A DNA stretch of 37,633 nt from a virus (Duplodnaviria > Heunggongvirae > Uroviricota > Caudoviricetes). The notes under the pieces are model-generated. The model worked only from the letters and a program-made list of their open reading frames with translations, was not told where the DNA came from and did no database searches. The translations under genes and the position numbers were made by a program. The stretch lies in IMG/VR virus record IMGVR_UViG_2939177367_000002. One strand, given 5' to 3'. Each line of letters opens with the position of its first letter. Position 1 is the first letter of the stretch. This document shows positions 1,136 through 35,013 of the stretch, one piece after another.

Positions 1136-2812
1136 CTAAGCAACATGTAGTTCATCGTTGGCGGAAGTGGCTGCTTTGCGCTCCTGCTCAATAGCTAGAG
1201 ACTCTCTATATTCTTTCGCCTCTGCAAACATTGTCCAGTGGGCGTTGATGTTCATGTCTTCAATAACTGATTTGATTTCTTTTAAATTTACGTTAAAAAA
1301 CTCTTTTCGTGAGTTAATTTTATTGACCTGCTTTTCGTTGAAAACTTTATGCAGATGGTTTTCTAATGATGGTGCATCATCACTATAAATCATCGCATGA
1401 ACATCGAACGAAAAAGGAACACTAGCATCTCCGAGTTCACGAACACGATCAAGTGGTTCAAGGCGGCGTGTCATTCCAATTTTATATACATCTTCGCCAA
1501 ATGAACCAATATTACTAATGATATAGACGTGGCCTGATCTGGTTTGTTGAGCCATAGAAATAGCTCGTTGATTTTTAGCTTCAGCTTCTTCATATTTTAA
1601 CTGTAGTTCAGCTATTTTTTGCTCTAAAGCTAAGCGTTGTTCTTCATTTGCAAGCATAAGTTCTTTCGTTGCTTTATTTATAGCTTGCTGAATAGCTTTT
1701 TCTTCTTTTTCAGCTTCTTTTATCGCTTTTTCATATTCTCTACGAGCTCTTTCCTCTTCACGAAGCTGTTCTTTAATCCTTCTTTGCTCTTCTTTTTCTT
1801 CGAGCATAATTTCATTAACTGCTACACCCCATTTTAGCTCGTTGAGTCTTGCCTGAAGATAGATGTCACTTATTTTTGCGGACCTAAAGGCAGAGCCATT
1901 GTAATTTACTAGTTGAAATGCATCTTTTATTTCTTGGGAAAGTTTTCCAAAATTGTTGTGTTTGACTTTTGATAAAATACTGTCAACTCTTCCATTGAAG
2001 GCATCCAAAACAAAGTTTATGGCAGTATTACGCCTGTTTTGCTCAACATAATCACACGAAGCAGCTTTATTAGTTTTTATTAATGATTTGGTTAACTCTC
2101 TGGCTTTTTGTAATTCCTTGCCTGCATCTGTAAATTCATAATTTTCTGCCAGCTCATCAAGTACACTACGGTTAGGGATGATCCATTCATCACCATAACC
2201 TTCAATTTTATTTTTCATTGATTTTGCAACTGCTTCATATTTTTCTGCAAACTCTTTAGCTTCATATGCTGAACCAGCAATCTCCTTTGCTCTTTCTTCT
2301 GCATCAGAAATAATTTTTACTGCATTGTCATTAGCATTTGAGATTAGCTCATTTGCTTTATTATTAGCATTATCAAGACGTTCTTTGGCTTTCAGGCGTG
2401 CATCGCGAGCGTCTTTGGTGATTGCTATAGCTTCGCTATTAGCGTTGCTTATTGTCATCTGAGCTTGATAATTTGCTTCGTTTACTGTTTTAGCCGCCTT
2501 AATTTGGGCTTCATCTATTTTTTGCTTGGCTATTGAGTCCGCATTTTTTATCTTATTCTCTGCATCCATTACTGCGCTGTGCAATTCTTCGTATTGCCAC
2601 AATGGTGCTGCTCGCCCTTCAAGCTCTGATAATTCTCGTACGGTCTGTGCTAGTTTTTCTTGATTTTCAATCAGTTGGTTAGAAAGGGCTATGTTGTTAG
2701 CTGTCAGGTTATCTATAGCCGCTTTGTGTTTTTTACTTTGTTTAAATAATATTACAGCTAGAACAGGGGCGAGAAATGCTAATAAGAGTATAACGATGGC
2801 AAATGAATTCAT
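1136..2812 (-). CDS. Cargo protein, 558 aa: N-terminal transmembrane helix, long coiled coil, C-terminal T5orf172/GIY-YIG-like domain (DUF4041-like central region)
   Basis: ATG at 2812 with AAGGAT ribosome-binding site only 20 bp after the repressor stop. N-terminus MNSFAIVILLLAFLAPVLAVILF is hydrophobic. C-terminus contains GHVYIISN...YKIGMTRR...FDVHAMIYS resembling the T5orf172 fold. Region is visibly AT-rich compared with flanking phage genes. Confidence 0.75.
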   Translation of the reverse strand: MNSFAIVILLLAFLAPVLAVILFKQSKKHKAAIDNLTANNIALSNQLIENQEKLAQTVRELSELEGRAAPLWQYEELHSAVMDAENKIKNADSIAKQKIDEAQIKAAKTVNEANYQAQMTISNANSEAIAITKDARDARLKAKERLDNANNKANELISNANDNAVKIISDAEERAKEIAGSAYEAKEFAEKYEAVAKSMKNKIEGYGDEWIIPNRSVLDELAENYEFTDAGKELQKARELTKSLIKTNKAASCDYVEQNRRNTAINFVLDAFNGRVDSILSKVKHNNFGKLSQEIKDAFQLVNYNGSAFRSAKISDIYLQARLNELKWGVAVNEIMLEEKEEQRRIKEQLREEERARREYEKAIKEAEKEEKAIQQAINKATKELMLANEEQRLALEQKIAELQLKYEEAEAKNQRAISMAQQTRSGHVYIISNIGSFGEDVYKIGMTRRLEPLDRVRELGDASVPFSFDVHAMIYSDDAPSLENHLHKVFNEKQVNKINSRKEFFNVNLKEIKSVIEDMNINAHWTMFAEAKEYRESLAIEQERKAATSANDELHVA

Positions 2813-2832
2813 TTTAAAATCCTTTTACTATA

Positions 2833-3429
2833 TTAATTCGAGACTATTGTACTTCTTATACAAGCAACCACTTCAATATCAGAAAATGCACATTCAAAGC
2901 TATTCTCTGCTGTTGTAATTTTAATCATTCCTTTAGGAAGCCTTGTGATTTTTCGAATGGAATAGGTTCCGTCGATATTGATTAACCAGTTTCCATCAAG
3001 TACTTCAGAAAATTTTTGATCACAAATGTATGTGACGAGTCCATCCTGAACAACAATTGGTGATGAAAGGTTTGCAGGAAGAAATGATGAATCGAAGACA
3101 TATGAACCGTCTTCAATCATTTTGCCTGCGGCAAGGCGAAACTTAACAAGCTCTTCTGTAGCTGCTGTCAGCGAGCTTTGCTTAAGGCCTTGTCCGGTAG
3201 TTAACCATTTGAGGGAGGTTCCTGTTTCAAGAGCACATTGGATTATCCAGTCAGCAGGAAATGTATCCCGCAAATACCTGTTCGCTAGTGTGCTTTTTGA
3301 TACTTCCAAGTGATCAGCTAAAGCCTGTCGTGTCGTAAAGCCATAGGCTTCGACTAATCGCTCAATCGCAGCCTTACCACCTTTATTGGGATTTATTTTG
3401 ATCTCACTTGGGTACTTTGATGTTGACAT
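2833..3429 (-). CDS. cI: CI-type immunity repressor (phage 186 CI-like), 198 aa
   Basis: ATG at 3429. N-terminal helix-turn-helix-like segment (TTRQALADHLEVSKSTLANRYL). Position between int and a divergent Apl/CII-like operon matches the 186 switch region. Confidence 0.75.
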   Translation of the reverse strand: MSTSKYPSEIKINPNKGGKAAIERLVEAYGFTTRQALADHLEVSKSTLANRYLRDTFPADWIIQCALETGTSLKWLTTGQGLKQSSLTAATEELVKFRLAAGKMIEDGSYVFDSSFLPANLSSPIVVQDGLVTYICDQKFSEVLDGNWLINIDGTYSIRKITRLPKGMIKITTAENSFECAFSDIEVVACIRSTIVSN

Positions 3430-5579: not shown

Positions 5580-6433
5580 GCACCATCCTGAAATGGGCAG
5601 GAAATAAAACCGCCATAATGTCCGAACTGAAAAAGCATCTTCCTGCTGGCCCGCGACTGGTTGAACCTTTCGCGGGTTCCTGTGCAGTGATGATGGAGAC
5701 GGATTACCCCAGCTATCTTGTTGCGGATATTAATCCTGATTTAATCAACCTCTATAAAAAGGTTGCTGCTGATTGTGAGGCGTTTATATCTCGTGCCAGA
5801 GCTTTATTTGAGGAAGCAAACAGGGAGGTGGCTTATTACAACATAAGGCAGGAGTTTAATTACTCCACTGAAATTACTGATTTCATGAAAGCGGTATATT
5901 TCCTGTATCTCAATCGTCACGGTTACCGTGGTTTATGTCGCTATAACAAGAGCGGGCATTTCAACATTCCCTACGGTAATTATAAAAATCCGTATTTCCC
6001 TGAAAAAGAAATTCGCGCATTTGCAGAGAAAGCCCAGCGGGCAACGTTTATCTGCGCCAGCTTTGATGAAACGCTGGCGATGTTGAAGGTGGGGGATGTG
6101 GTGTATTGCGATCCGCCTTATGACGGTACGTTTTCCGGCTATCACACTGATGGTTTCACTGAAGATGATCAGTATCACCTGGCATCCATTCTTGAACATC
6201 GGTCATCAGAAGGACATCCGGTCATTGTTTCTAACAGTGACACATCCCTGATCCGTTCGTTGTATCGCAATTTCACCCACCACTACATCAAAGCAAAACG
6301 CAGCATCGGTGTGGCAGCTGGCGAGGGTAAATCAGCAACAGAAATCATTGCTGTTTCCGGGCCGCGCTGCTGGGTGGGATTTGATTATTCGCGTGGCGTG
6401 GACAGTTCTGCCGTGTACGGAGTACGTGCATGA
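5576..6433 (+). CDS. DNA N6-adenine methyltransferase (Dam-like, D12 class), 285 aa
   Basis: ATG at 5576 with GGAGG ribosome-binding site. SAM-binding-like segment [11 protein letters not shown] and catalytic DPPY motif (VYCDPPYDG) visible in translation. No nuclease partner adjacent. Confidence 0.85.
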
Positions 6434-8844
6434 GTCATGCCGATATGAACAACTGCTGCGGCTTTAACGAGTCTGCCGCAGCATTCTCATGGAACAGCCC
6501 GAAAAAGGCCATTAACCCTTATCTGGACCCGGCGGAAGTTGCGCCGGTTTCTGCGCTTTCAAACCTGATCACTCTGTACGCTGCCGATAACGAGCAGGAA
6601 CAACTGCGCCGCGAGGCACTGAGTGATCAGGTCTGGGAGCGTTATTTCTTTAATGAATCCCGTGATCCTGTCCAGCGCGAAATGGAGCAGGATAAGCTAA
6701 TTAGCCGGGCAAAGCTGGCGCATGAGCAGCAGCGTTTTAATCCGGACATGGTCATTCTGGCGGATGTCAACGCCCAGCCTTCCCATATCAGCAAGCCGCT
6801 GATGCAACGTATTGAATACTTCAGCAGCCTGGGCAGGCCAAAGGCTTATTCCCGCTATTTACGTGAGACGATTAAGCCATGTCTGGAACGACTGGAGCAT
6901 GTACGCGACAGTCAGCTATCTGCATCTTTTCGCTTTATGGCAAGCCATGAAGGGCTGGACGGCCTGCTGATCTTGCCTGAAATGAGTCAGGATCAGGTGA
7001 AACGCCTGTCCACCCTGGTAGCTGCGCATATGAGTATGTGCCTTGATGCAGCTTGTGGTGATTTGTATGCCACCGATGACGTTAAGCCAGAAGAAATCCG
7101 CAAGACATGGGAAAGGGTGGCAGCAGAAACCCTGCGACTGGATGTCATCCCACCTGCGTTTGAGCAACTCCGCCGGAAAAGAAACCGCCGTAAACCCGTG
7201 CCCTATGAACTCATTCCGGGTTCGCTGGCGCGTATGTTGTGCGCCGACTGGTGGTATCGGAAATTATGGAAGATGCGTTGCGAATGGCGGGAAGAGCAGT
7301 TGCGCGCTGTCTGCCTGGTCAGCAAAAAAGCATCTCCCTATGTCAGCTATGAAGCTGTGATGCATAAACGTGAGCAGCGCCGTAAGTCGCTGGAGTTTTT
7401 TCGTTCTCATGAACTGGTGAACGAAGATGGCGACACGCTGGATATGGAAGACGTGGTAAACGCCAGCAGCAGCAACCCTGCGCATCGCCGCAATGAGATG
7501 ATGGCCTGTGTTAAAGGTCTGGAGCTTATCGCGGAAATGCGCGGTGACTGCGCCGTTTTCTACACCATCACCTGTCCGTCACGTTTCCATTCCACGCTAA
7601 ATAACGGCAGGCCCAACCCGACTTGGACAAATGCGACGGTAAGACAAAGCAGTGATTATCTGGTCGGCATGTTTGCTGCATTTCGTAAGGCGATGTACAA
7701 AGCCGGATTGCGCTGGTATGGCGTGCGGGTGGCTGAGCCGCATCATGACGGTACAGTTCACTGGCACCTGTTGTGTTTTATGCGCAAAAAAGATCGCCGC
7801 GCCATTACTGCTTTGTTGCGTAAGTTTGCCATTCGTGAAGACCGTGAGGAGCTGGGTAATAACACAGGACCACGCTTTAAGTCTGAGCTGATAAACCCGC
7901 GCAAAGGTACGCCAACAAGCTACATCGCGAAATACATCAGTAAGAACATTGACGGGCGTGGTCTGGCTGGCGAGATCAGCAAGGAAACGGGTAAATCCCT
8001 GCGTGATAACGCTGAATACGTTAATGCCTGGGCGTCTCTTCATCGTGTTCAGCAATTCCGCTTCTTTGGCATTCCGGGGCGTCAGGCTTACCGTGAACTG
8101 CGATTGCTGGCTGGTCAGGCGGCAAGGCAACAGGGGGACAAAAAAGCAGGTGCGGCGGTACTGGATAACCCACGCCTTGATGCCATCCTGGCTGCTGCTG
8201 ATGCTGGTTGTTTTGCCACCTACATCATGAAGCAGGGCGGCGTGCTGGTTCCCCGTAAATATCACCTCATCAGAACCGCTTATGAAATCAACGAAGAGCC
8301 GACCGCCTATGGCGATCACGGCATTCGTATTTATGGCATCTGGTCACCCATTGCAGAGGGCAAGATCTGCACTCATGCAGTGAAGTGGAAAATGGTTCGT
8401 AAAGCCGTTGACGTTCAGGAGGCGGCAGCCGACCAGGGCGCTTGCGCCCCTTGGACTCGTGGCAATAACTGTCCCCTTGCTGAAAATTTGTACCAACAAG
8501 GGAAAGACAAATCAGCTGATGGGGATACCAGAACGGATATTACCCGCATGGATGACAAGGAGTTGCACGATTACCTGCACAGTATGAACAAAAAAGAGCG
8601 CCGGGAACTGGCTGCAAGGTTACGCCTGGTGAAACCGAAACGGCGTAAAGACTACAAACAGCGAATTACAGACCATCAGCGACAGCAGCTCGTCTATGAA
8701 CTGAAGTCCAGAGGATTTGATGGCAGCGAGAAAGAGGTCGATTTACTCCTTCGCGGCGGCAGTATTCCGTCAGGAGCAGGCCTGCGTATCTTCTATCGGA
8801 ACCAGCGTTTGCAGGAAGATGATAAGTGGCGAAACCTGTATTAA
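6430..8844 (+). CDS. A: Rolling-circle replication initiator endonuclease (P2 gpA-like), 804 aa
   Basis: ATG at 6430 overlapping the upstream stop. Size, position and a paired-tyrosine segment ([11 protein letters not shown]) match the P2 A family. Confidence 0.9.
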
Positions 8845-9196: not shown

Positions 9197-9430
9197 ATGC
9201 GCATTGAAATAATGATCGATAAAGAGCAGAAGATTAGCCAGTCTACCCTGGACGCCCTTGAATCCGAGCTTTACCGCAATCTGCGTCCTCTGTATCCCAA
9301 AATGGTAATTCGTATCCGCAAAGGTAGCTCTAACGGTGTGGAACTGACCGGATTGCAACTGGACGAAGAAAGAAAACAAGTGATGAAAATTATGCAGAAG
9401 GTGTGGGAAGACGACAGCTGGCTGCATTAA
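9197..9430 (+). CDS. DinI-like protein, 77 aa
   Basis: ATG at 9197 with GAGGTGA ribosome-binding site. Translation MRIEIMIDK...IRIRKGSSNGVELTGL...VWEDDSWLH resembles the DinI family as I recall it. Confidence 0.7.
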   Translation: MRIEIMIDKEQKISQSTLDALESELYRNLRPLYPKMVIRIRKGSSNGVELTGLQLDEERKQVMKIMQKVWEDDSWLH

Positions 9431-9700: not shown

Positions 9701-9916
9701 ATGTCAAGCATCGCCGCATTTAGCCTGGGTAACCCAGTTGAACGTCTGGCAAGGGTTCTTAAAGAGAACCAGGACAAACTCAATCTTAGTAAAGATGGTT
9801 TTGTGTCCGTAGACTTGTCTAACAAAAGAGCAATGGATGCCATCAAGGCACAGATGGATAAGCTTGAAGGCATCAAAACGAGCACTGTAAAAGAGAAAAC
9901 TAATAGAACCAGATAA
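9701..9916 (+). CDS. Hypothetical small soluble protein, 71 aa; first gene of a two-gene cargo operon
   Basis: ATG at 9701 with GGGGGAG upstream; its stop TAA overlaps the next ATG (TAATG at 9914..9918), implying translational coupling. Confidence 0.5.
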   Translation: MSSIAAFSLGNPVERLARVLKENQDKLNLSKDGFVSVDLSNKRAMDAIKAQMDKLEGIKTSTVKEKTNRTR

Positions 9917-10758
9917 TGGCAACATTACTTTTAGCAGTGATTTTGGTTAGTGGTTTTATTTATGTAAACCTATCACTTTCAACAAGATACCGATATAAGC
10001 GTTCCAACGGCTGGGACGCTTATTTTTTTGTGGCTGCCTGGGGTATCGTTTTTTTTCTCCTTGGCGGTTTTTTCACCTTTATTTTGAACGTCAGCGGAGG
10101 GTTTCGTTGGCTGGCTAATGCCTTGAATCTAACACCTGACAGTTTTAATGGCATGTTGTCTTCATCGAAAGACAAACTTCAAAGAATAAATGAAATCAAA
10201 CAGATAGCATGGGTTATGATTTCAATTGTCCTCGCTGCGATTTCAGGTTTTGGAAATAAGTTACGCACATCACGTGGAGATCGTCGCTGGGATGCCTTAG
10301 CTAAAGCTGTGGGTAATAACGCTTTCGAATCATTACTCATGGAAGCGTCCGCAAGACAGTTTCCGATCATAGCAACTCTGTCGTCTCGCAAAATCTATGT
10401 TGGTCTTGTTACTTGTCCGGCGTTAGAAAACGGGCTTTCAGAGCACCTTGAACTTCTCCCGATGTTAAGCGGATATCGGGATAAAGATGATCTAACGATT
10501 AGTATCACGACTAACTATCACCAACATTATCTTGATAGTGGTGTGATAAGTGGAATGTCTCGGCTTAATATCGAAGATTTCCGTGTGCTCATACCAAAAG
10601 ATGAGGTTGAAACAATTTCGTTTTTTGATACTGAGACATATAACAAATTTAAAGAAAATGAAGCCAGGGATAGAAAGAACTGTCGAAAGATTGATAGTAA
10701 AAGTGCATCTTCGCGCAGCAAGCGTGCAGCAGATGCTGAGTCAAATGATCGTGCATGA
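9916..10758 (+). CDS. Hypothetical membrane protein, 280 aa, three predicted transmembrane helices plus a ~170-aa charged C-terminal domain
   Basis: Hydrophobic segments LLLAVILVSGFIYVNL, YFFVAAWGIVFFLLGGFFTFIL and IAWVMISIVLAAISGFG; no family recognised. Confidence 0.6.
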   Translation: MATLLLAVILVSGFIYVNLSLSTRYRYKRSNGWDAYFFVAAWGIVFFLLGGFFTFILNVSGGFRWLANALNLTPDSFNGMLSSSKDKLQRINEIKQIAWVMISIVLAAISGFGNKLRTSRGDRRWDALAKAVGNNAFESLLMEASARQFPIIATLSSRKIYVGLVTCPALENGLSEHLELLPMLSGYRDKDDLTISITTNYHQHYLDSGVISGMSRLNIEDFRVLIPKDEVETISFFDTETYNKFKENEARDRKNCRKIDSKSASSRSKRAADAESNDRA

Positions 10759-10805
10759 CTATGCTGCATGAGATCGCATGATCGTTTGAGGATCGTTTTT
10801 GCTAG

Positions 10806-10830
10806 GGCCCGCCAGAACTGGCGGGCTTTC
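10806..10830 (+). terminator. Weak hairpin GGCCCGCC-AGAACT-GGCGGGC followed by TTTC
   Basis: Read directly; lies after the 280-aa gene and before the AT-rich promoter region of the 557-aa gene. Confidence 0.3.
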
Positions 10831-10995
10831 GCGTAGATCATGCACCTGCATGAAAACTACTACATAAAGCGGGCAGGCGTGGCGGGGATACGAGCGCGCG
10901 CAACAGTGTAACAATCTGGATCTAATGTGATATAGTTACTGTAAATATTATTAACTATTCTTATATGCATTATTAAATATTTTAATGGAGCGTTT

Positions 10996-12669
10996 ATGGA
11001 AAAATATCAAGATGAGGAATATGTAGATGATTTAACTGAGCGTGTTTTTCTCATTAAGCAACAACTGGAAGCGGGAAAACTAAAAATAGCTCATCATCTT
11101 GTAGAAGGTTTTATTGAAAGTTTTAAAAGAATAAGGCTGCGACAGGATGGTAAAGTTGACCCTTCTACTGTTGATGGCAGAATAAGGGCTATGGGAGCAG
11201 CGGTTAATCACTTTTTAGAAAGAGAAGATATAAAAAACAAATACTCTATTCAGGACTTGCAAAGTTCTTACTTTAATATTCTTTTTAGTAATTTTGGCGA
11301 GTTGTTTTATCTGATGAAAAAAACTAATGCAACGCCACATAAAGCATCAAGTTTTTTTTCTCAACAAGAAGAATATGTTAAGCAAATAGAAGATATTTTT
11401 CCTGAGTTATATAATCAGGTAATAGAGTTTTGGCAGGTAACATCCGATATTGGTGTAATACATTTGCAGGATGGTTCTCAGTTTAAAGCTAATTTTTCTG
11501 GTGACTTATTTCCTGCATTTGATGAGAATGCTGTCTCTATTGCAGGGTTGTATGTTGATACTATTTCACTTCCATGTCCTATATTAAGAGTCGGTCGTCT
11601 CTATGAAAAGTCAGATAAGGCTGAGTTTACAAGGATACTTCTGAAGCATGTCCTAACATGTATGACATATAAAGAAGTAGCGCTTGAAGATATAGAGCCA
11701 GCAATAGTATTAATTTTGCCGGATAGAAGAGATTTTGAAACTGAGAGCAAAAAAAATTTGATGAGTTTTTGTGAGCCTTATGCTCTGACTCATGCGCAAT
11801 ATCTCTATGATCGACGGTTCGAAAGCTACGATGAATTTCGAGATTTTAGTTATTCGATGAATGATATTGATGCTGTTCTTAAAAATATTAAGAGAGCAGA
11901 TAGACTTATTTTTGATACAGCATGGGGGCTAAATCCAAAAACTCAATTAGAAAAACTACTATCTGATAAAAAAAGAATATCACGTAATGTTGTTGGTGAT
12001 CATGCTGGAATGGAGGTTTTCCTTTCCTGCATTGGAAGAATGCCGCAAGCCTATTCAGCAAAATGTAATGCACAAGAACTTGGTAGTACTCCATATATAA
12101 ATGCAGACACATCTTGGCTCTATTATACTTGGCTTATTGAGTACGAATCTCTTAATTTTGATGTCAATGATATTGAACTAAAAAATTTGCATATGGTTCA
12201 TGCGTTATCTGCTGGTATGCAAGATGGTTTTTCATGGTTAGGAAATGTACCGGTCAATAAAATAATTGAGTTGAGACGTAACAAATTGATGGAGGATGTA
12301 AGATCCATCTTATCAAATGGTGTTGACTCTTTAATCAATTCTTCGGCAGAGAGCTTTTCGAGGACAACGCAAAAAGTAATTGATAATGTAGACCGGGCTT
12401 TTATTGAACATCAAAGGATTCTTGCAAAAGCCCAAAAAGAGAAATTGAGAATTTACGGACTAGATGTCCTACCATGTATCGCAAATGGTGCTATAGCAAT
12501 TGCTGGAGCGCTGACTGGCAATACTACTTTAACGGCGTTAAGTGCAGGCCTTGGAGTAATAGGTATTCCGAGTATTAGTGATATCAAATCTAAATTTAAG
12601 CAGAGGCAAGAGAAGCTTGATGCCTATCAACGTTCTGTTACAGGTATACTCTTTAGCCATAAATCTTAA
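10996..12669 (+). CDS. Hypothetical protein, 557 aa, very AT-rich, with a Gly/Ala-rich hydrophobic segment near the C-terminus; no recognisable family
   Basis: ATG at 10996 with GGAG upstream and an AT-rich promoter-like leader. Long uninterrupted frame with protein-like composition; C-terminal GAIAIAGALTG...ALSAGLGVIGIP; terminator hairpin downstream. Confidence 0.7.
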   Translation: MEKYQDEEYVDDLTERVFLIKQQLEAGKLKIAHHLVEGFIESFKRIRLRQDGKVDPSTVDGRIRAMGAAVNHFLEREDIKNKYSIQDLQSSYFNILFSNFGELFYLMKKTNATPHKASSFFSQQEEYVKQIEDIFPELYNQVIEFWQVTSDIGVIHLQDGSQFKANFSGDLFPAFDENAVSIAGLYVDTISLPCPILRVGRLYEKSDKAEFTRILLKHVLTCMTYKEVALEDIEPAIVLILPDRRDFETESKKNLMSFCEPYALTHAQYLYDRRFESYDEFRDFSYSMNDIDAVLKNIKRADRLIFDTAWGLNPKTQLEKLLSDKKRISRNVVGDHAGMEVFLSCIGRMPQAYSAKCNAQELGSTPYINADTSWLYYTWLIEYESLNFDVNDIELKNLHMVHALSAGMQDGFSWLGNVPVNKIIELRRNKLMEDVRSILSNGVDSLINSSAESFSRTTQKVIDNVDRAFIEHQRILAKAQKEKLRIYGLDVLPCIANGAIAIAGALTGNTTLTALSAGLGVIGIPSISDIKSKFKQRQEKLDAYQRSVTGILFSHKS

Positions 12670-12674
12670 TGTAG

Positions 12675-12704
12675 AGGGCCGAGGTATTCGGCCCTTAGTT
12701 TTAT
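12675..12704. terminator. Hairpin AGGGCCG-N7-CGGCCCT with flanking T-rich tract, between the 557-aa gene and portal gene Q
   Basis: Read directly; could terminate the plus-strand cargo gene and/or the convergent Q transcript. Confidence 0.4.
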
Positions 12705-13729
12705 ATGAAACTGTATGGCATGAATTTTATTATGTCATCTTTGAGCCATTTATTGAGTTCTTCTATTCTGTTTTGTAGCGGTATCAATTCATTACGCATA
12801 AAAACCTTACTAGCCTTCTCCACATCCCCAAATCCCCCAACATTATTCGGCATTATCCCCATCATTTGCGGCGGCACTCGGTGTGCTGCCATCATGTCAT
12901 CCCGGCTCACGTTCTTGATATTCAAAAATTCATCCTTTGCCGCGACTTCTGACAGAGGAATAATCTGAAGCCCGTCTTTTTTGCCGTTAGGCGAGTACAT
13001 AAACAGGTTGCGAAAGTTGCCTGGACCTTTGGCGCTTTTCATCGCGTTACGGAGATTGTTTACATCTTCCTGGTTCTGCGCGGCGTCGGTCATGTACATG
13101 ATGAAGCCTGCATGGCTGCCGTTGATGTAATACTTACGGCGGAACAGCGTGGCGGACTCGTTGAGCAGGGCTGACGGAATGGCAGAAAGATAACCGGGCA
13201 GGCCGTAGATCTCCTGGTTGATATCTGGTTCCATCAGATGAAAAATGCTGCCTTTCGTGAACTGATACGGTTGCGTGGTCATACCGTATTGCACAAACCA
13301 GTAGGTATCCAGGTCTAACCCGCGTCGGGTATATTTTGCCAGGGCAGGCTCAAGAGCGATAATTTCACCGAACCGGTTCGTGCGTTTCTCCAGATAGGCG
13401 TTACCAAATACCAGATAGTCCTGCACAAAACGTGAAAAAGCCTGCTGGCTGAGCAGCGGGTGAGGGATGTAGGTGCTGGTCAGAATGTTGCACTTTACTG
13501 CAATCGGGGAACTATGATGAACGGCAGCGCGGAAGGTGCGCGCCAGTCCGTCAAAGCTGACGGGCGGCTCATACCAGCGGTCCATCTGTACGCATTCCAC
13601 ATAATCCAGCAGTTCTCGGCGGTCCAGAACAGGAACGGGATCGCCGAAGCTGAATGCTTCGGCTGTAGTTTGACTTTTAAGCTGGATCTGTTTCGTCGCC
13701 GCAGCGCGGTTCTTCTTACTCTTTCCCAT
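12701..13729 (-). CDS. Q: Portal protein (P2 gpQ-like), about 342 aa
   Basis: ATG at 13727..13729 (reverse) overlapping the gpP stop (TGATG). Size and position next to the terminase match P2. The last ~25 codons are encoded by AT-rich DNA. Confidence 0.85.
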   Translation of the reverse strand: MGKSKKNRAAATKQIQLKSQTTAEAFSFGDPVPVLDRRELLDYVECVQMDRWYEPPVSFDGLARTFRAAVHHSSPIAVKCNILTSTYIPHPLLSQQAFSRFVQDYLVFGNAYLEKRTNRFGEIIALEPALAKYTRRGLDLDTYWFVQYGMTTQPYQFTKGSIFHLMEPDINQEIYGLPGYLSAIPSALLNESATLFRRKYYINGSHAGFIMYMTDAAQNQEDVNNLRNAMKSAKGPGNFRNLFMYSPNGKKDGLQIIPLSEVAAKDEFLNIKNVSRDDMMAAHRVPPQMMGIMPNNVGGFGDVEKASKVFMRNELIPLQNRIEELNKWLKDDIIKFMPYSFI

Positions 13730-15495
13730 CAAAAAAACTCCACAATATTGCTGGTATTGGCGGATTCGCCCTGCAGCGGTTCGTTAAACAGTGCGTGCAT
13801 CGTTGCCCAGGCCAGATCGGCGTGGCTGGCTTCTTCGCTGCGGCTGGCTTCATAGGTCGGGCGGTTGCCACTGGCGGTGGTGGCGCGACGGATTGCCATA
13901 AAGGACTGCGCTATGTCGGTGTGTCCGGCGTCAAACTCCAGACGGCGGTGGCTGATAATGTCGTAGGCCTTGAGTACCAGGGCGTTTTTAACGTTGGGGT
14001 TGTAGACAAACTCCCGGACGGCAGGAAAAAACGCTTTCACGTTCTCGTAAACCCCGTGACCAACGCCGGTTGAGTCGATACCGATATAGGTCACGTTGTA
14101 CTGTTCGGTCAGTTTTTTGATGGCGTCAGCCTGGGCGCGGAAGTCCATTCCGCGCCACTGGTGACGCTCAAGAATGCGGAACTTACCGCCCGGCACGGCT
14201 GGCGGCGCCACCACCACGCATCCGGCGCTGTCGCCGTTCTGCGTACCTTTCGCCGGGTCATATCCGATCCACACTTCGCGCCAGCCAAACGGGCGCAGGG
14301 CCAGTGCATGAAAGTCGGTCCAGACTTCCCAACTGTCCACCATGCACGCCTGCAGCTCGCTGAGTGGGAACACAGACGCGAGATCGTCCACGAACTCACA
14401 CATCAGCAGGTTCTGGTATTCGTCCGGGCTGTACTCCATGCGCAACTGGTCGAGGTCGAACAGGTTACAGCCGCCGCGCACCGCATCTTCCACAGTGACT
14501 ATCTGGCGGTACTGCCCGTCTGCGCACAGCAGGCCGGGGGCCAGATTGCTGTGGGACAGGTCGATGTCCACCTTATCGGCTTTGTTGCGCCCTCGGTTGA
14601 ACAGCGCACCGGACCAGAACGGATAAGCACTGTGTGTCAGGCTGGATGGCGTGGAAAAATAGGTTTGTCGCCATTTTTTGTGAATAGCCATACCGGAAGC
14701 CACTTTGCGCAGCTCCTGGAATTTCGGTATCCAGAAATATTCATCCAGATACAGGTTGCCGTGGTAACTCTGGGCCGTGCGGGCATTGGTGCCGAGGAAG
14801 TACAGCGTGGCCCCGTTAGGAAGCACCATCGGATCGCCTTTCAGCTCCACCTCCACTTCTTTGGCGAAGTCGATGATGTACTGCTTAAAGACGTGGGCCT
14901 GAGCCTTGCTGGCGGAAAGGAAAATCTGGTTACGCCCGGTTAGCAGGGCGTCAATCAGGGCTTCACGGGCAAAATAGAAGGTCGCGCCGATCTGGCGTGA
15001 CTTCAGCAGGTTGCGGATGCGGTTGGTTTTTCCGGCTTCCCACCAGTGGCGCTGGTAGTTGAACATGGAGGAATGGAAGATTTCTTCCAGCTTCTCAATC
15101 TGTTCATCGGTGAAAACGTTCTTTTCCGGCTGACGGCGCGGGCCTTTGTTGCGGTTGGCGACGTTAGGGTTTAAGTCGGCTTCGTTGCCGCCATTGTTAA
15201 ACTTGCCGATCCGCGCATGGCGCTCCGACTGGCGCGCCAGCAGGTCAATCTCTTTGAAATCTTTCCCTTCTTTGTGCTCCTTCATAATGAGCTGGCAGTA
15301 GCGTGCGGCGGTGGTGAGCTGCATCTGATCCAGCGGCCCATAGTCACCCCACTTGTCGCGTTTTTTCCAGCTGTGAACGGTTGCAACTTTCTCGCCCAGC
15401 ATTTCAGCAATGCGGGCTACGCGGTATCCCTGAAAGTACAGCAGCATGGCCTGCCGACGGGGATCGAGATCTGCGGGTGTCAGTGTGGTGTTCAT
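13729..15495 (-). CDS. P: Terminase large (ATPase) subunit (P2 gpP-like), 588 aa
   Basis: ATG at 15495 (reverse); size and divergent arrangement with the O-N-M-L operon as in P2. Confidence 0.9.
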   Translation of the reverse strand: MNTTLTPADLDPRRQAMLLYFQGYRVARIAEMLGEKVATVHSWKKRDKWGDYGPLDQMQLTTAARYCQLIMKEHKEGKDFKEIDLLARQSERHARIGKFNNGGNEADLNPNVANRNKGPRRQPEKNVFTDEQIEKLEEIFHSSMFNYQRHWWEAGKTNRIRNLLKSRQIGATFYFAREALIDALLTGRNQIFLSASKAQAHVFKQYIIDFAKEVEVELKGDPMVLPNGATLYFLGTNARTAQSYHGNLYLDEYFWIPKFQELRKVASGMAIHKKWRQTYFSTPSSLTHSAYPFWSGALFNRGRNKADKVDIDLSHSNLAPGLLCADGQYRQIVTVEDAVRGGCNLFDLDQLRMEYSPDEYQNLLMCEFVDDLASVFPLSELQACMVDSWEVWTDFHALALRPFGWREVWIGYDPAKGTQNGDSAGCVVVAPPAVPGGKFRILERHQWRGMDFRAQADAIKKLTEQYNVTYIGIDSTGVGHGVYENVKAFFPAVREFVYNPNVKNALVLKAYDIISHRRLEFDAGHTDIAQSFMAIRRATTASGNRPTYEASRSEEASHADLAWATMHALFNEPLQGESANTSNIVEFF

Positions 15496-34800: not shown

Positions 34801-34858
34801 TCGTTAAAAAACACTGCTTCTAACATCATGATTTTAAAAGGCATAAATTTTAGGCAAC

Positions 34859-34901
34859 AAAAAACCCATCAACCTTGAACCGAAATGGCGGGGTTGATGG
34901 G
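34859..34901 (-). terminator. Rho-independent terminator of ybjL (10-bp stem CCCATCAACC/GGTTGATGGG followed by a T-run on the minus strand)
   Basis: Read directly; a perfect 10-bp stem, with AAAAAA on the plus strand at 34859..34864 giving UUUUUU on the minus-strand transcript. Confidence 0.55.
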
Positions 34902-35013
34902 CTCCACAAAATGGGGACATCAAAGAAAAGCAGTGGCACTAATTAAGACTGATGCCCTGCGGAAAAGTTCTGCGGTTGTGCAAAAAAATTTCATTTTCAG
35001 GGCAACTTCAGTT

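Follow-up and report, generated by a model that had tools for sequence, protein, structure and literature searches.

The segment between gpA and gpQ of P2-like prophages has been defined as a defence hotspot, and three of eight P2 loci of unknown function that were picked from it at random, along with six of eight from the P4 hotspot, gave defence when tested (Rousset et al. 2022). The same survey found non-defence cargo in the hotspot as well, among it plasmid partition genes and a cytolethal distending toxin. A second point of reference is Aditi, a system of two genes, DitA followed by DitB, from Saccharibacillus kuerlensis, which was validated in B. subtilis (Millman et al. 2022). Here we describe a gene for a protein of 557 amino acids (aa) that relates to both. 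It lies in a stretch of viral DNA of 37,633 nucleotides (IMG/VR record IMGVR_UViG_2939177367_000002, hereafter the window) that holds a P2-like prophage, and the exact protein has been catalogued as the single-protein ‘system 79’ of the P2 hotspot, present in 49 of 18,150 loci and listed with two transmembrane (TM) segments (Rousset et al. 2022, Table S5B); NCBIfam release 20.0 (June 2026) holds no name for it. We show that the gene forms a cargo cassette, autonomous and horizontally mobile, in the slot between cos and the portal gene, and that residues ~84-426 of its product are, by profile comparison, remotely homologous to DitB. Some form of anti-phage role is likely. As far as can be told, the link to DitB, the solo architecture bearing a hairpin, the breadth of the family, the placement between cos and Q, and a remnant in Enterobacter kobei are all new.

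A PADLOC search matched residues 195-452 of the protein to DitB (E=7.3e-10), and DitB was matched in 5 of the 11 family members tested. With DitB (372 aa) and DitA (483 aa) of S. kuerlensis taken from the supplement of Millman et al., and family alignments built for each, hhalign placed residues 84-426 of an 86-cluster alignment of the 557-aa family on residues 9-316 of the DitB family, with a probability of 96% and E=4.9e-9; in global mode, the wide family reached 96.8% against DitB. A profile of the close family gave a marginal match (E=0.003), comparison with the single DitB or DitA sequence was not significant, meaning that alignments are needed on both sides, and a hidden Markov model (HMM) built here from Firmicute DitB only did not match the 557-aa protein. 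The anchors shared by both families (QxxY, FW, G..Y..(C/D)P, LP, Q and PxI) are colinear (Table 1), and the LPCP of Enterobacterales reads LPDP in distant relatives, matching the DDP of DitB. The original prediction had recognised no motif in the protein, which is true of Pfam, NCBIfam and PHROGs, none of which returned a match, but the remote homology to DitB had been missed.

No DitA was matched by PADLOC in the window, nor by the DitA HMM at E<=0.01 in the 37.6-kb window and 32 homologous loci, and hhalign of the 557-aa protein against DitA yielded a probability of 0.1-0.3%, with no similarity to any part of it. The protein is a member of the DitB superfamily, and the locus is not an Aditi system. 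What the two share is that their proteins are rich in helices, lack a recognisable catalytic domain and occur in defence contexts. Unlike Aditi, there is one gene here instead of two, DitA (DUF5677) being absent from the window and the 32 loci; the protein exceeds the 372 aa of DitB by ~80 N-terminal and ~130 C-terminal residues; and it carries a hydrophobic hairpin, whereas the DitB sequence ends before that segment. Identity to DitB is ~14-18%, and the 557-aa family is mostly proteobacterial, while the Aditi examples that we retrieved are Firmicutes. As for DitA itself, the DitA proteins (P0305-P0424) carry the precomputed Pfam label DUF5677 (PF18928); a 2022 preprint on Aditi reported no recognisable domain in DitA. 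One locus (L009) has a weak DUF5677 gene 4.2 kb downstream of the family member; the DitA HMM does not detect this gene.

The protein had been regarded as an orphan, a view that can be abandoned. An initial homology search yielded 212 proteins, of which nearly all are full-length (553-562 aa), from Enterobacterales, Aeromonas, Aquitalea and Ca. Electronema, and an exhaustive profile search gave 756 clusters of 50% identity at E<=1e-3, 263 of them at E<=1e-30. A scan of species-representative genomes adds Betaproteobacteria, Xanthomonas, Alphaproteobacteria, Cyanobacteria (Stenomitos, Gastranaerophilales) and Desulfosporosinus; going by these searches, the family comprises at least 756 clusters across Proteobacteria, Cyanobacteria and Firmicutes. 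The 557-aa gene is under strong purifying selection, with a dN/dS against the Citrobacter orthologue of 0.131/1.554 = 0.084. Furthermore, 72% of 269 family proteins measure 540-570 aa, 84 columns are invariant among 33 aligned family sequences, and the copies in 17 E. coli genomes are at least 99% identical and full-length, except for indel-bearing records of strain 13P477T. At 17 of 21 loci the gene has a lower GC content than its flanks.

Strain 13P477T has three copies (NZ_CP019273; CP019275, 37.4 kb; CP019279, 22.6 kb), two of them on small ‘plasmid’ records, one of which is also filed as phage. Both small-record copies have length differences of 1-2 nt that split the open reading frame (ORF), and these records probably reflect a prophage, excised or replicating, whose long-read assembly retained indel errors. 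Split ORFs also mark the fragmented copies of Pseudomonas capeferrum (L027, 9947-11146) and a member of the Kordiimonadales (L032, 9965-11640). Distant members P0225, P0239 and P0262 (about 710-750 aa) have an extra N-terminal domain of ~200 aa without a Pfam or PDB match, P0217 (843 aa) has an N-terminal extension containing a helix-turn-helix, and the extension of P0159 looks like a miscalled start.

The prophage in the window runs, from left to right, through integrase, CI repressor region, gene A, cargo, portal Q and terminase P, and the 557-aa gene adjoins cos between gpA and portal Q, which is the hotspot position. In P2, only 167 bp separate cos from the stop codon of Q, containing just the terminator tQ, and the P2 exclusion genes tin and old are on the gpA side of cos. 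In the window, cos and Q are 1.8 kb apart. The cos core here (GGCGTGGCGGGGATACGAG, followed by CGCGCGC) corresponds to the cosL annotated in P2 (GGCGAGGCGGGGAAAGCAC, followed by TGCGCGC). When aligned with the sister prophage of E. coli ECCRA-119 (L014), the backbone shows identity through cos, breaks at ~10902 and resumes at the portal; the slot of ECCRA-119 is occupied by sieB instead (Pfam SieB, E 4.5e-25), with the cos core upstream of it. The same cos core is found 110-170 bp upstream of the gene in L001-L004, L007/8, L011, L012 and L013, and throughout the Enterobacterales a cos or cos-like sequence always stands at this distance ahead of it, even outside intact prophages. Other co-resident cargo is present in E. 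coli 1283, Citrobacter and Serratia, so slot content differs among related prophages. The P2 hotspot really consists of two slots divided by cos; the one on the Q side is empty in P2, while relatives carry either the 557-aa gene or sieB there. Several GCATGA repeats precede the 19-nt core in the cos region (10740-10901; in L014 5540-5690), and so does a strong hairpin (10806-10830, dG -23 kcal/mol), which follows the 71/280-aa gene pair. A role in packaging, as suggested by the adjacency to cos, was considered and rejected, the gene being absent from P2 and most P2-like phages and present outside phages.

Like old and tin of P2, the gene belongs to a locus class that is variable between similar prophages and low in GC, and has a (here candidate) promoter of its own, independent of the late operon. 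It differs in lying on the Q side of cos instead of the gpA side, and in having no sequence relation to Old or Tin. With SieB it shares the identical slot between cos and Q, and the make-up of a small cassette for a membrane protein of a temperate phage; SieB, however, has 181 aa, and the 557-aa protein does not match the Pfam family SieB (PF14163).

Much of what had been read from the sequence of the gene itself holds: the ORF, its GGAG ribosome-binding site, the hairpin terminator and the Gly/Ala-rich hydrophobic segment near the C-terminus were all recovered. The ORF has a GC content of 0.353 (0.246 at third codon positions) and is the lowest-GC gene of the phage; the window as a whole has 0.507, and gpA, portal and terminase, which flank the gene, have 0.50-0.57. 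The gene had been called much more AT-rich than all else in the prophage, which goes too far, since the region at ~1200-3000, holding a PD-Lambda-1 gene, is comparably AT-rich (0.355-0.361). The proposed promoter fares similarly: a sigma-70-like site stands ahead of the gene, but the promoter scan alone was not significant, finding 7 sites where 11.3 were expected. Its -10 block (TGTGATATAGT) travels with the cassette, being identical in E. coli 1283 and conserved in Citrobacter, and from this pattern we regard the site as promoter-like and as a candidate only. GGAG is also present in these two cassettes. The terminator hairpin has 10 pairs, 6 of them G-C, and a U-rich tail, with a dG of -16.8 kcal/mol and a z of -4.0 (0 of 200 shuffles were equally stable). 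It is specific to the cassette, being identical in E. coli 1283 and conserved in Citrobacter, while the versions of Serratia, sieB and P2 differ. Because the -10 block and the terminator hairpin move with the gene, the unit can be set at 10902-12700.

Table 1. Features of the 557-aa gene, its cassette and the neighbouring prophage genes, in window coordinates, and residues aligned with DitB.
Feature	Position	Strand	Remark
557-aa ORF	10996-12669	+	ATG start; solo DitB-superfamily protein
Whole cargo cassette (promoter, leader, ORF, terminator)	10902-12700 (about)	+	Within the cos-Q interval
Sigma-70-like promoter (candidate)	10908-10936	+	-35 GTAACA, 17-nt spacer, TG-extended -10 TATAGT; 9/12 matches
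Ribosome-binding site GGAG	10987-10990	+	5 nt before ATG; read from sequence
DitB-homologous region, residues 84-426	11245-12273	+	PADLOC and hhalign
Gly/Ala-rich hydrophobic helical hairpin, residues 489-527	12460-12576	+	Predicted 2 TM or re-entrant; basic amphipathic tail after it
Intrinsic-terminator hairpin	12674-12696	+	Between the convergent 557-aa gene and portal gene Q
cos core (19-nt cohesive-end equivalent)	10876-10894	+	Left cassette boundary, outside the cassette
Replication gene A (gpA)	6430-8844		Phage_GPA, E 8e-127
62-aa ORF			Between gpA and the DinI-like gene
DinI-like gene	9197-9430		
71-aa and 280-aa pair	9701-10758	+	Overlapping stop/start; phrog_9843 and phrog_3630
Portal Q	12701-13732	-	Phage_portal match; terminase P also on the opposite strand
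Anchor in the 557-aa family	Q89/Y92		Q14/Y17 in DitB
Anchor in the 557-aa family	F145/W146		F43/W44 in DitB
Anchor in the 557-aa family	G184..P195		G87..P95 in DitB
Anchor in the 557-aa family	LP (241/242)		LP (141/142) in DitB
Anchor in the 557-aa family	Q351		Q242 in DitB
Anchor in the 557-aa family	P366-x-I		P257-x-I in DitB

What does the protein look like beyond its DitB-like part? An AlphaFold2 model (33-sequence alignment, pLDDT 84, pTM 0.76) predicts an N-terminal helical region (residues 7-158), a mixed core with a small sheet (strands 164-167, 189-192, 238-240 and 365-367), and a 54-residue helix (454-507) that leads into a short hydrophobic hairpin (510-522) and return helices (527-552). 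A model of residues 155-456 alone was poor (pLDDT 62) and was not used; the modelling suggests that this core is not an independent domain. Fold searches of PDB and BFVD with the full model returned no match, there was no structural similarity to solved pore-forming or membrane effector folds (colicin-type, BDLP paddle and others), and when the family profile was searched against PDB sequences, only noise-level matches came up (for instance a haemagglutinin TM region at E 0.04). The wider hairpin segment (LDVLPCIANGAIAIAGALTGNTTLTALSAGLGVIGIPSI) contains GxxxG-like motifs, and it is here that Phobius called the two TM segments of Table S5B. Its composition is conserved in the 86 cluster representatives (17% Ala, 13% Gly, 8% charged), and in 74-92% of family members no other window is as hydrophobic. 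Polar residues conserved across the family (H156, K164, D188, T189, R348, S373, W374, R427, R436 and N464) suggest a putative binding or catalytic pocket. PADLOC also reported a weak match (E=0.0046) of residues 430-540 to residues 392-509 of LeoBC. The long helix, hydrophobic tip and return helix do resemble the membrane ‘paddle’ of Eleos LeoBC and other dynamin-like proteins, but the 557-aa protein belongs to no P-loop or GTPase family in Pfam or NCBIfam, no LeoA partner was found, and the match, being near noise, is probably driven by composition.

Outside this prophage, an all-against-all comparison of neighbours within 6 kb at 21 non-P2 loci found no recurrent partner gene, and the neighbours also vary among four P2-like prophages. 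The company is often that of defence genes. The gene adjoins an Old-family nuclease on a conjugative element with a type IV secretion system coupling protein (L021), a type IIG MmeI-like restriction-modification (RM) gene (L025), an MkoA-like helicase (L018), an SNF2/ZorD-like helicase (L029), retron-type reverse transcriptases (L009 and L027), and Gabija with UvrD/HNH within a Tn7-like element (L006). The reverse transcriptase of L027 is RT-TIR_XII/RT-Toprim-like (E 1e-175). In Enterobacter kobei (L012, 7357-10319 and 12148-14939), all that is left of a prophage at the rybB-ybjL site is an integrase fragment, cos, the intact 557-aa gene and a portal fragment. The window prophage is integrated at the same site, its host flank being marked by the RybB sRNA (34856-34934, minus strand, 105 bits). 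That the E. kobei gene stayed intact while ~30 kb of phage genes were lost argues for a benefit to the host.

A homologue of 57% identity is found in Pseudocitrobacter (L024, 2166-10186) and Enterobacter soli (L030, 5571-11671), behind a cos-like variant and after a P4-type alpha primase (Zn-ribbon/Toprim/DUF927) and Psu-like genes, and in L024 a portal-like gene comes next. It would seem that cargo is shared at cos between P4-like and P2-like elements, which according to a 2026 preprint almost never exchange defences.

We read the 557-aa gene as a single-gene defence module because of its location in the hotspot, its autonomy, the defence genes in its company, its retention after prophage decay, the selection on it and its foreign composition, the homology to DitB, the hairpin, and the proportion of hotspot loci that proved defensive. 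How might such a module work? The gene would be expressed in the lysogen from its own sigma-70 promoter, as are old and tin of P2, and recognition of a cue of infection would fall to the large cytoplasmic DitB-like body. Through its C-terminal hairpin the protein would be held at the inner membrane, which the hairpin would perturb upon activation or oligomerisation. Depolarisation or leakage could then lead to abortive infection or to exclusion of the superinfecting phage, and the fused hairpin may replace, as output, whatever DitA does in the two-gene Aditi. This full statement of a single-protein anti-phage module, with the membrane-effector step included, we put forward tentatively, as something that falls just short of an even chance.

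Several points weigh against it. The protein is absent from the tables of tested systems of Rousset et al. (S2A and S2B), and a literature search turned up no experimental test or name for it, or for anything ‘DitB-like’ or ‘Aditi-like’. A 2026 preprint predicted by machine learning that only 15-32% of unknown P2 hotspot proteins are antiviral. About one third of the non-phage loci adjoin housekeeping genes (GlgB, GyrB, ValRS), as minimal insertions. The hydrophobicity of the hairpin is borderline (maximum Kyte-Doolittle value over 19 residues of 1.62, at residues 488-506), and instead of an effector the segment may be part of a buried core or just an anchor. The His/Asp cluster that is invariant in DitB (H80, H90, D93 and D94) is not conserved in the 557-aa family. 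Moreover, homology to a member of a system without a known mechanism says ‘defence-associated’ and gives no chemistry.

The more ambitious version of the defence reading, that of a widespread single-protein abortive-infection system with a new fold, in which a DitB-type sensor is directly joined to a Gly/Ala-rich hairpin that enters the inner membrane and depolarises it upon sensing phage, we consider unlikely as it stands. If it were true, DitB would be the sensing module of Aditi, and the output would be swappable between DitA in trans and a hairpin in cis.

The protein could instead act as a membrane-anchored exclusion factor in the manner of Sie proteins, without abortive infection, with the hairpin serving only as anchor and the body blocking the entry of DNA from incoming phages or one of their early steps. 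In favour, the slot between cos and Q can be taken by either this gene or sieB, a large cytoplasmic domain is combined with a short hairpin and a basic tail on the same side, and a temperate phage that carries such a gene gains from a living host. However, the protein resembles neither SieB nor any other Sie protein in sequence or fold, DitB of Aditi is without a membrane segment, and the family is also common outside prophages, beside RM, Old and Gabija genes. We hold this explanation to be rather unlikely.

A comparably small chance is given to the gene being an accessory ‘moron’ unrelated to defence, such as an envelope or membrane fitness factor, a gene of benefit to the phage (e.g. in lysis timing) or an anti-defence protein. 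The partition genes and toxin in the hotspot would be precedents for this, five of the eight P2 loci tested by Rousset et al. gave no defence, the housekeeping neighbours at several loci fit it, and no effector domain can be recognised. It is opposed by the homology to a validated defence protein and by the repeated adjacency to defence genes on Tn7-like, conjugative and integrase islands; an intact gene in the fully decayed prophage of E. kobei speaks against a role for the phage only, and 557 aa with a TM hairpin would be atypical for an anti-defence protein.

The original prediction had also offered a third component of the upstream pair as an option. In the window prophage, the 71-aa, 280-aa and 557-aa genes are adjacent, on the same strand and all low in GC, and the 280-aa protein, with its N-terminal hydrophobic segments, is also membrane-associated. 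Yet cos and the hairpin at 10806-10830 intervene, which places the pair at the opposite end of the packaged DNA. Among complete E. coli genomes the pair is present in 52 and the 557-aa gene in 17, and in ECCRA-119 the pair is followed by sieB, not by the 557-aa gene. Conversely, the gene is present and the pair absent in E. coli 1283 (with a 386-aa hypothetical gene), in Citrobacter (with a reverse-strand 390-aa gene), in Serratia (with an AAA_15/21 ATPase and a 202-aa protein), in all non-P2 loci, and in loci of Rousset et al. (Table S5A) that consist only of ‘hypothetical + DinI + hypothetical’, with the exact protein under accession WP_024235280. The co-occurrence check that had been proposed thus finds gene and pair to be independent, and the pair is an independent module on the gpA side of cos. 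With the pair beyond cos, the differing genome counts, sieB after the pair and no conserved partner at the 21 non-P2 loci, the gene stands alone, and membership in a three-gene system is effectively refuted. The alternative suggestion of a stand-alone single-gene system is supported by this, by the boundaries at cos and the Q stop, and by the promoter-like site and terminator that the cassette brings along. Neither the 71-aa nor the 280-aa protein has a PADLOC or Pfam match, and an identification of the trio with the three-gene anti-P1 system of Rousset et al. with ‘no clear predicted domain’ was likewise rejected, PADLOC not matching the two proteins and the modules being independent. Finally, that the gene is a decaying, non-functional remnant, as the fragmented copies in L027 and L032 and the 1-2-nt indels of the two small 13P477T records might suggest, is effectively refuted for the window copy by the purifying selection, the uniform lengths, the invariant columns and the near-identical E. 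coli copies described above.

Aditi is one of the few validated defence systems without a recognisable domain or known mechanism, and with this family it gains a sister of at least 756 clusters. If functional, the family offers a single polypeptide in E. coli, where genetics is easiest, with a candidate membrane-hairpin output module, and would thereby make the sensor and effector logic of the DitB superfamily directly testable. Should the cassette prove to have no phenotype, it would be one more hypothetical hotspot gene that had already been catalogued. The gene also documents a second cargo slot in P2-like phages, on the Q side of cos, and the E. kobei copy clearly exemplifies prophage cargo that has stayed intact after the remainder of the prophage disappeared.

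The window holds a second AT-rich cargo gene, located between integrase and CI repressor (1136-2812, minus strand, 558 aa). Its product strongly matches PD-Lambda-1, a known single-gene defence system (PADLOC E=2.4e-120; Pfam DUF4041 and T5orf172/MUG113), and in the Citrobacter sister prophage a homologous 565-aa gene is found where this PD-Lambda-1-like gene lies.

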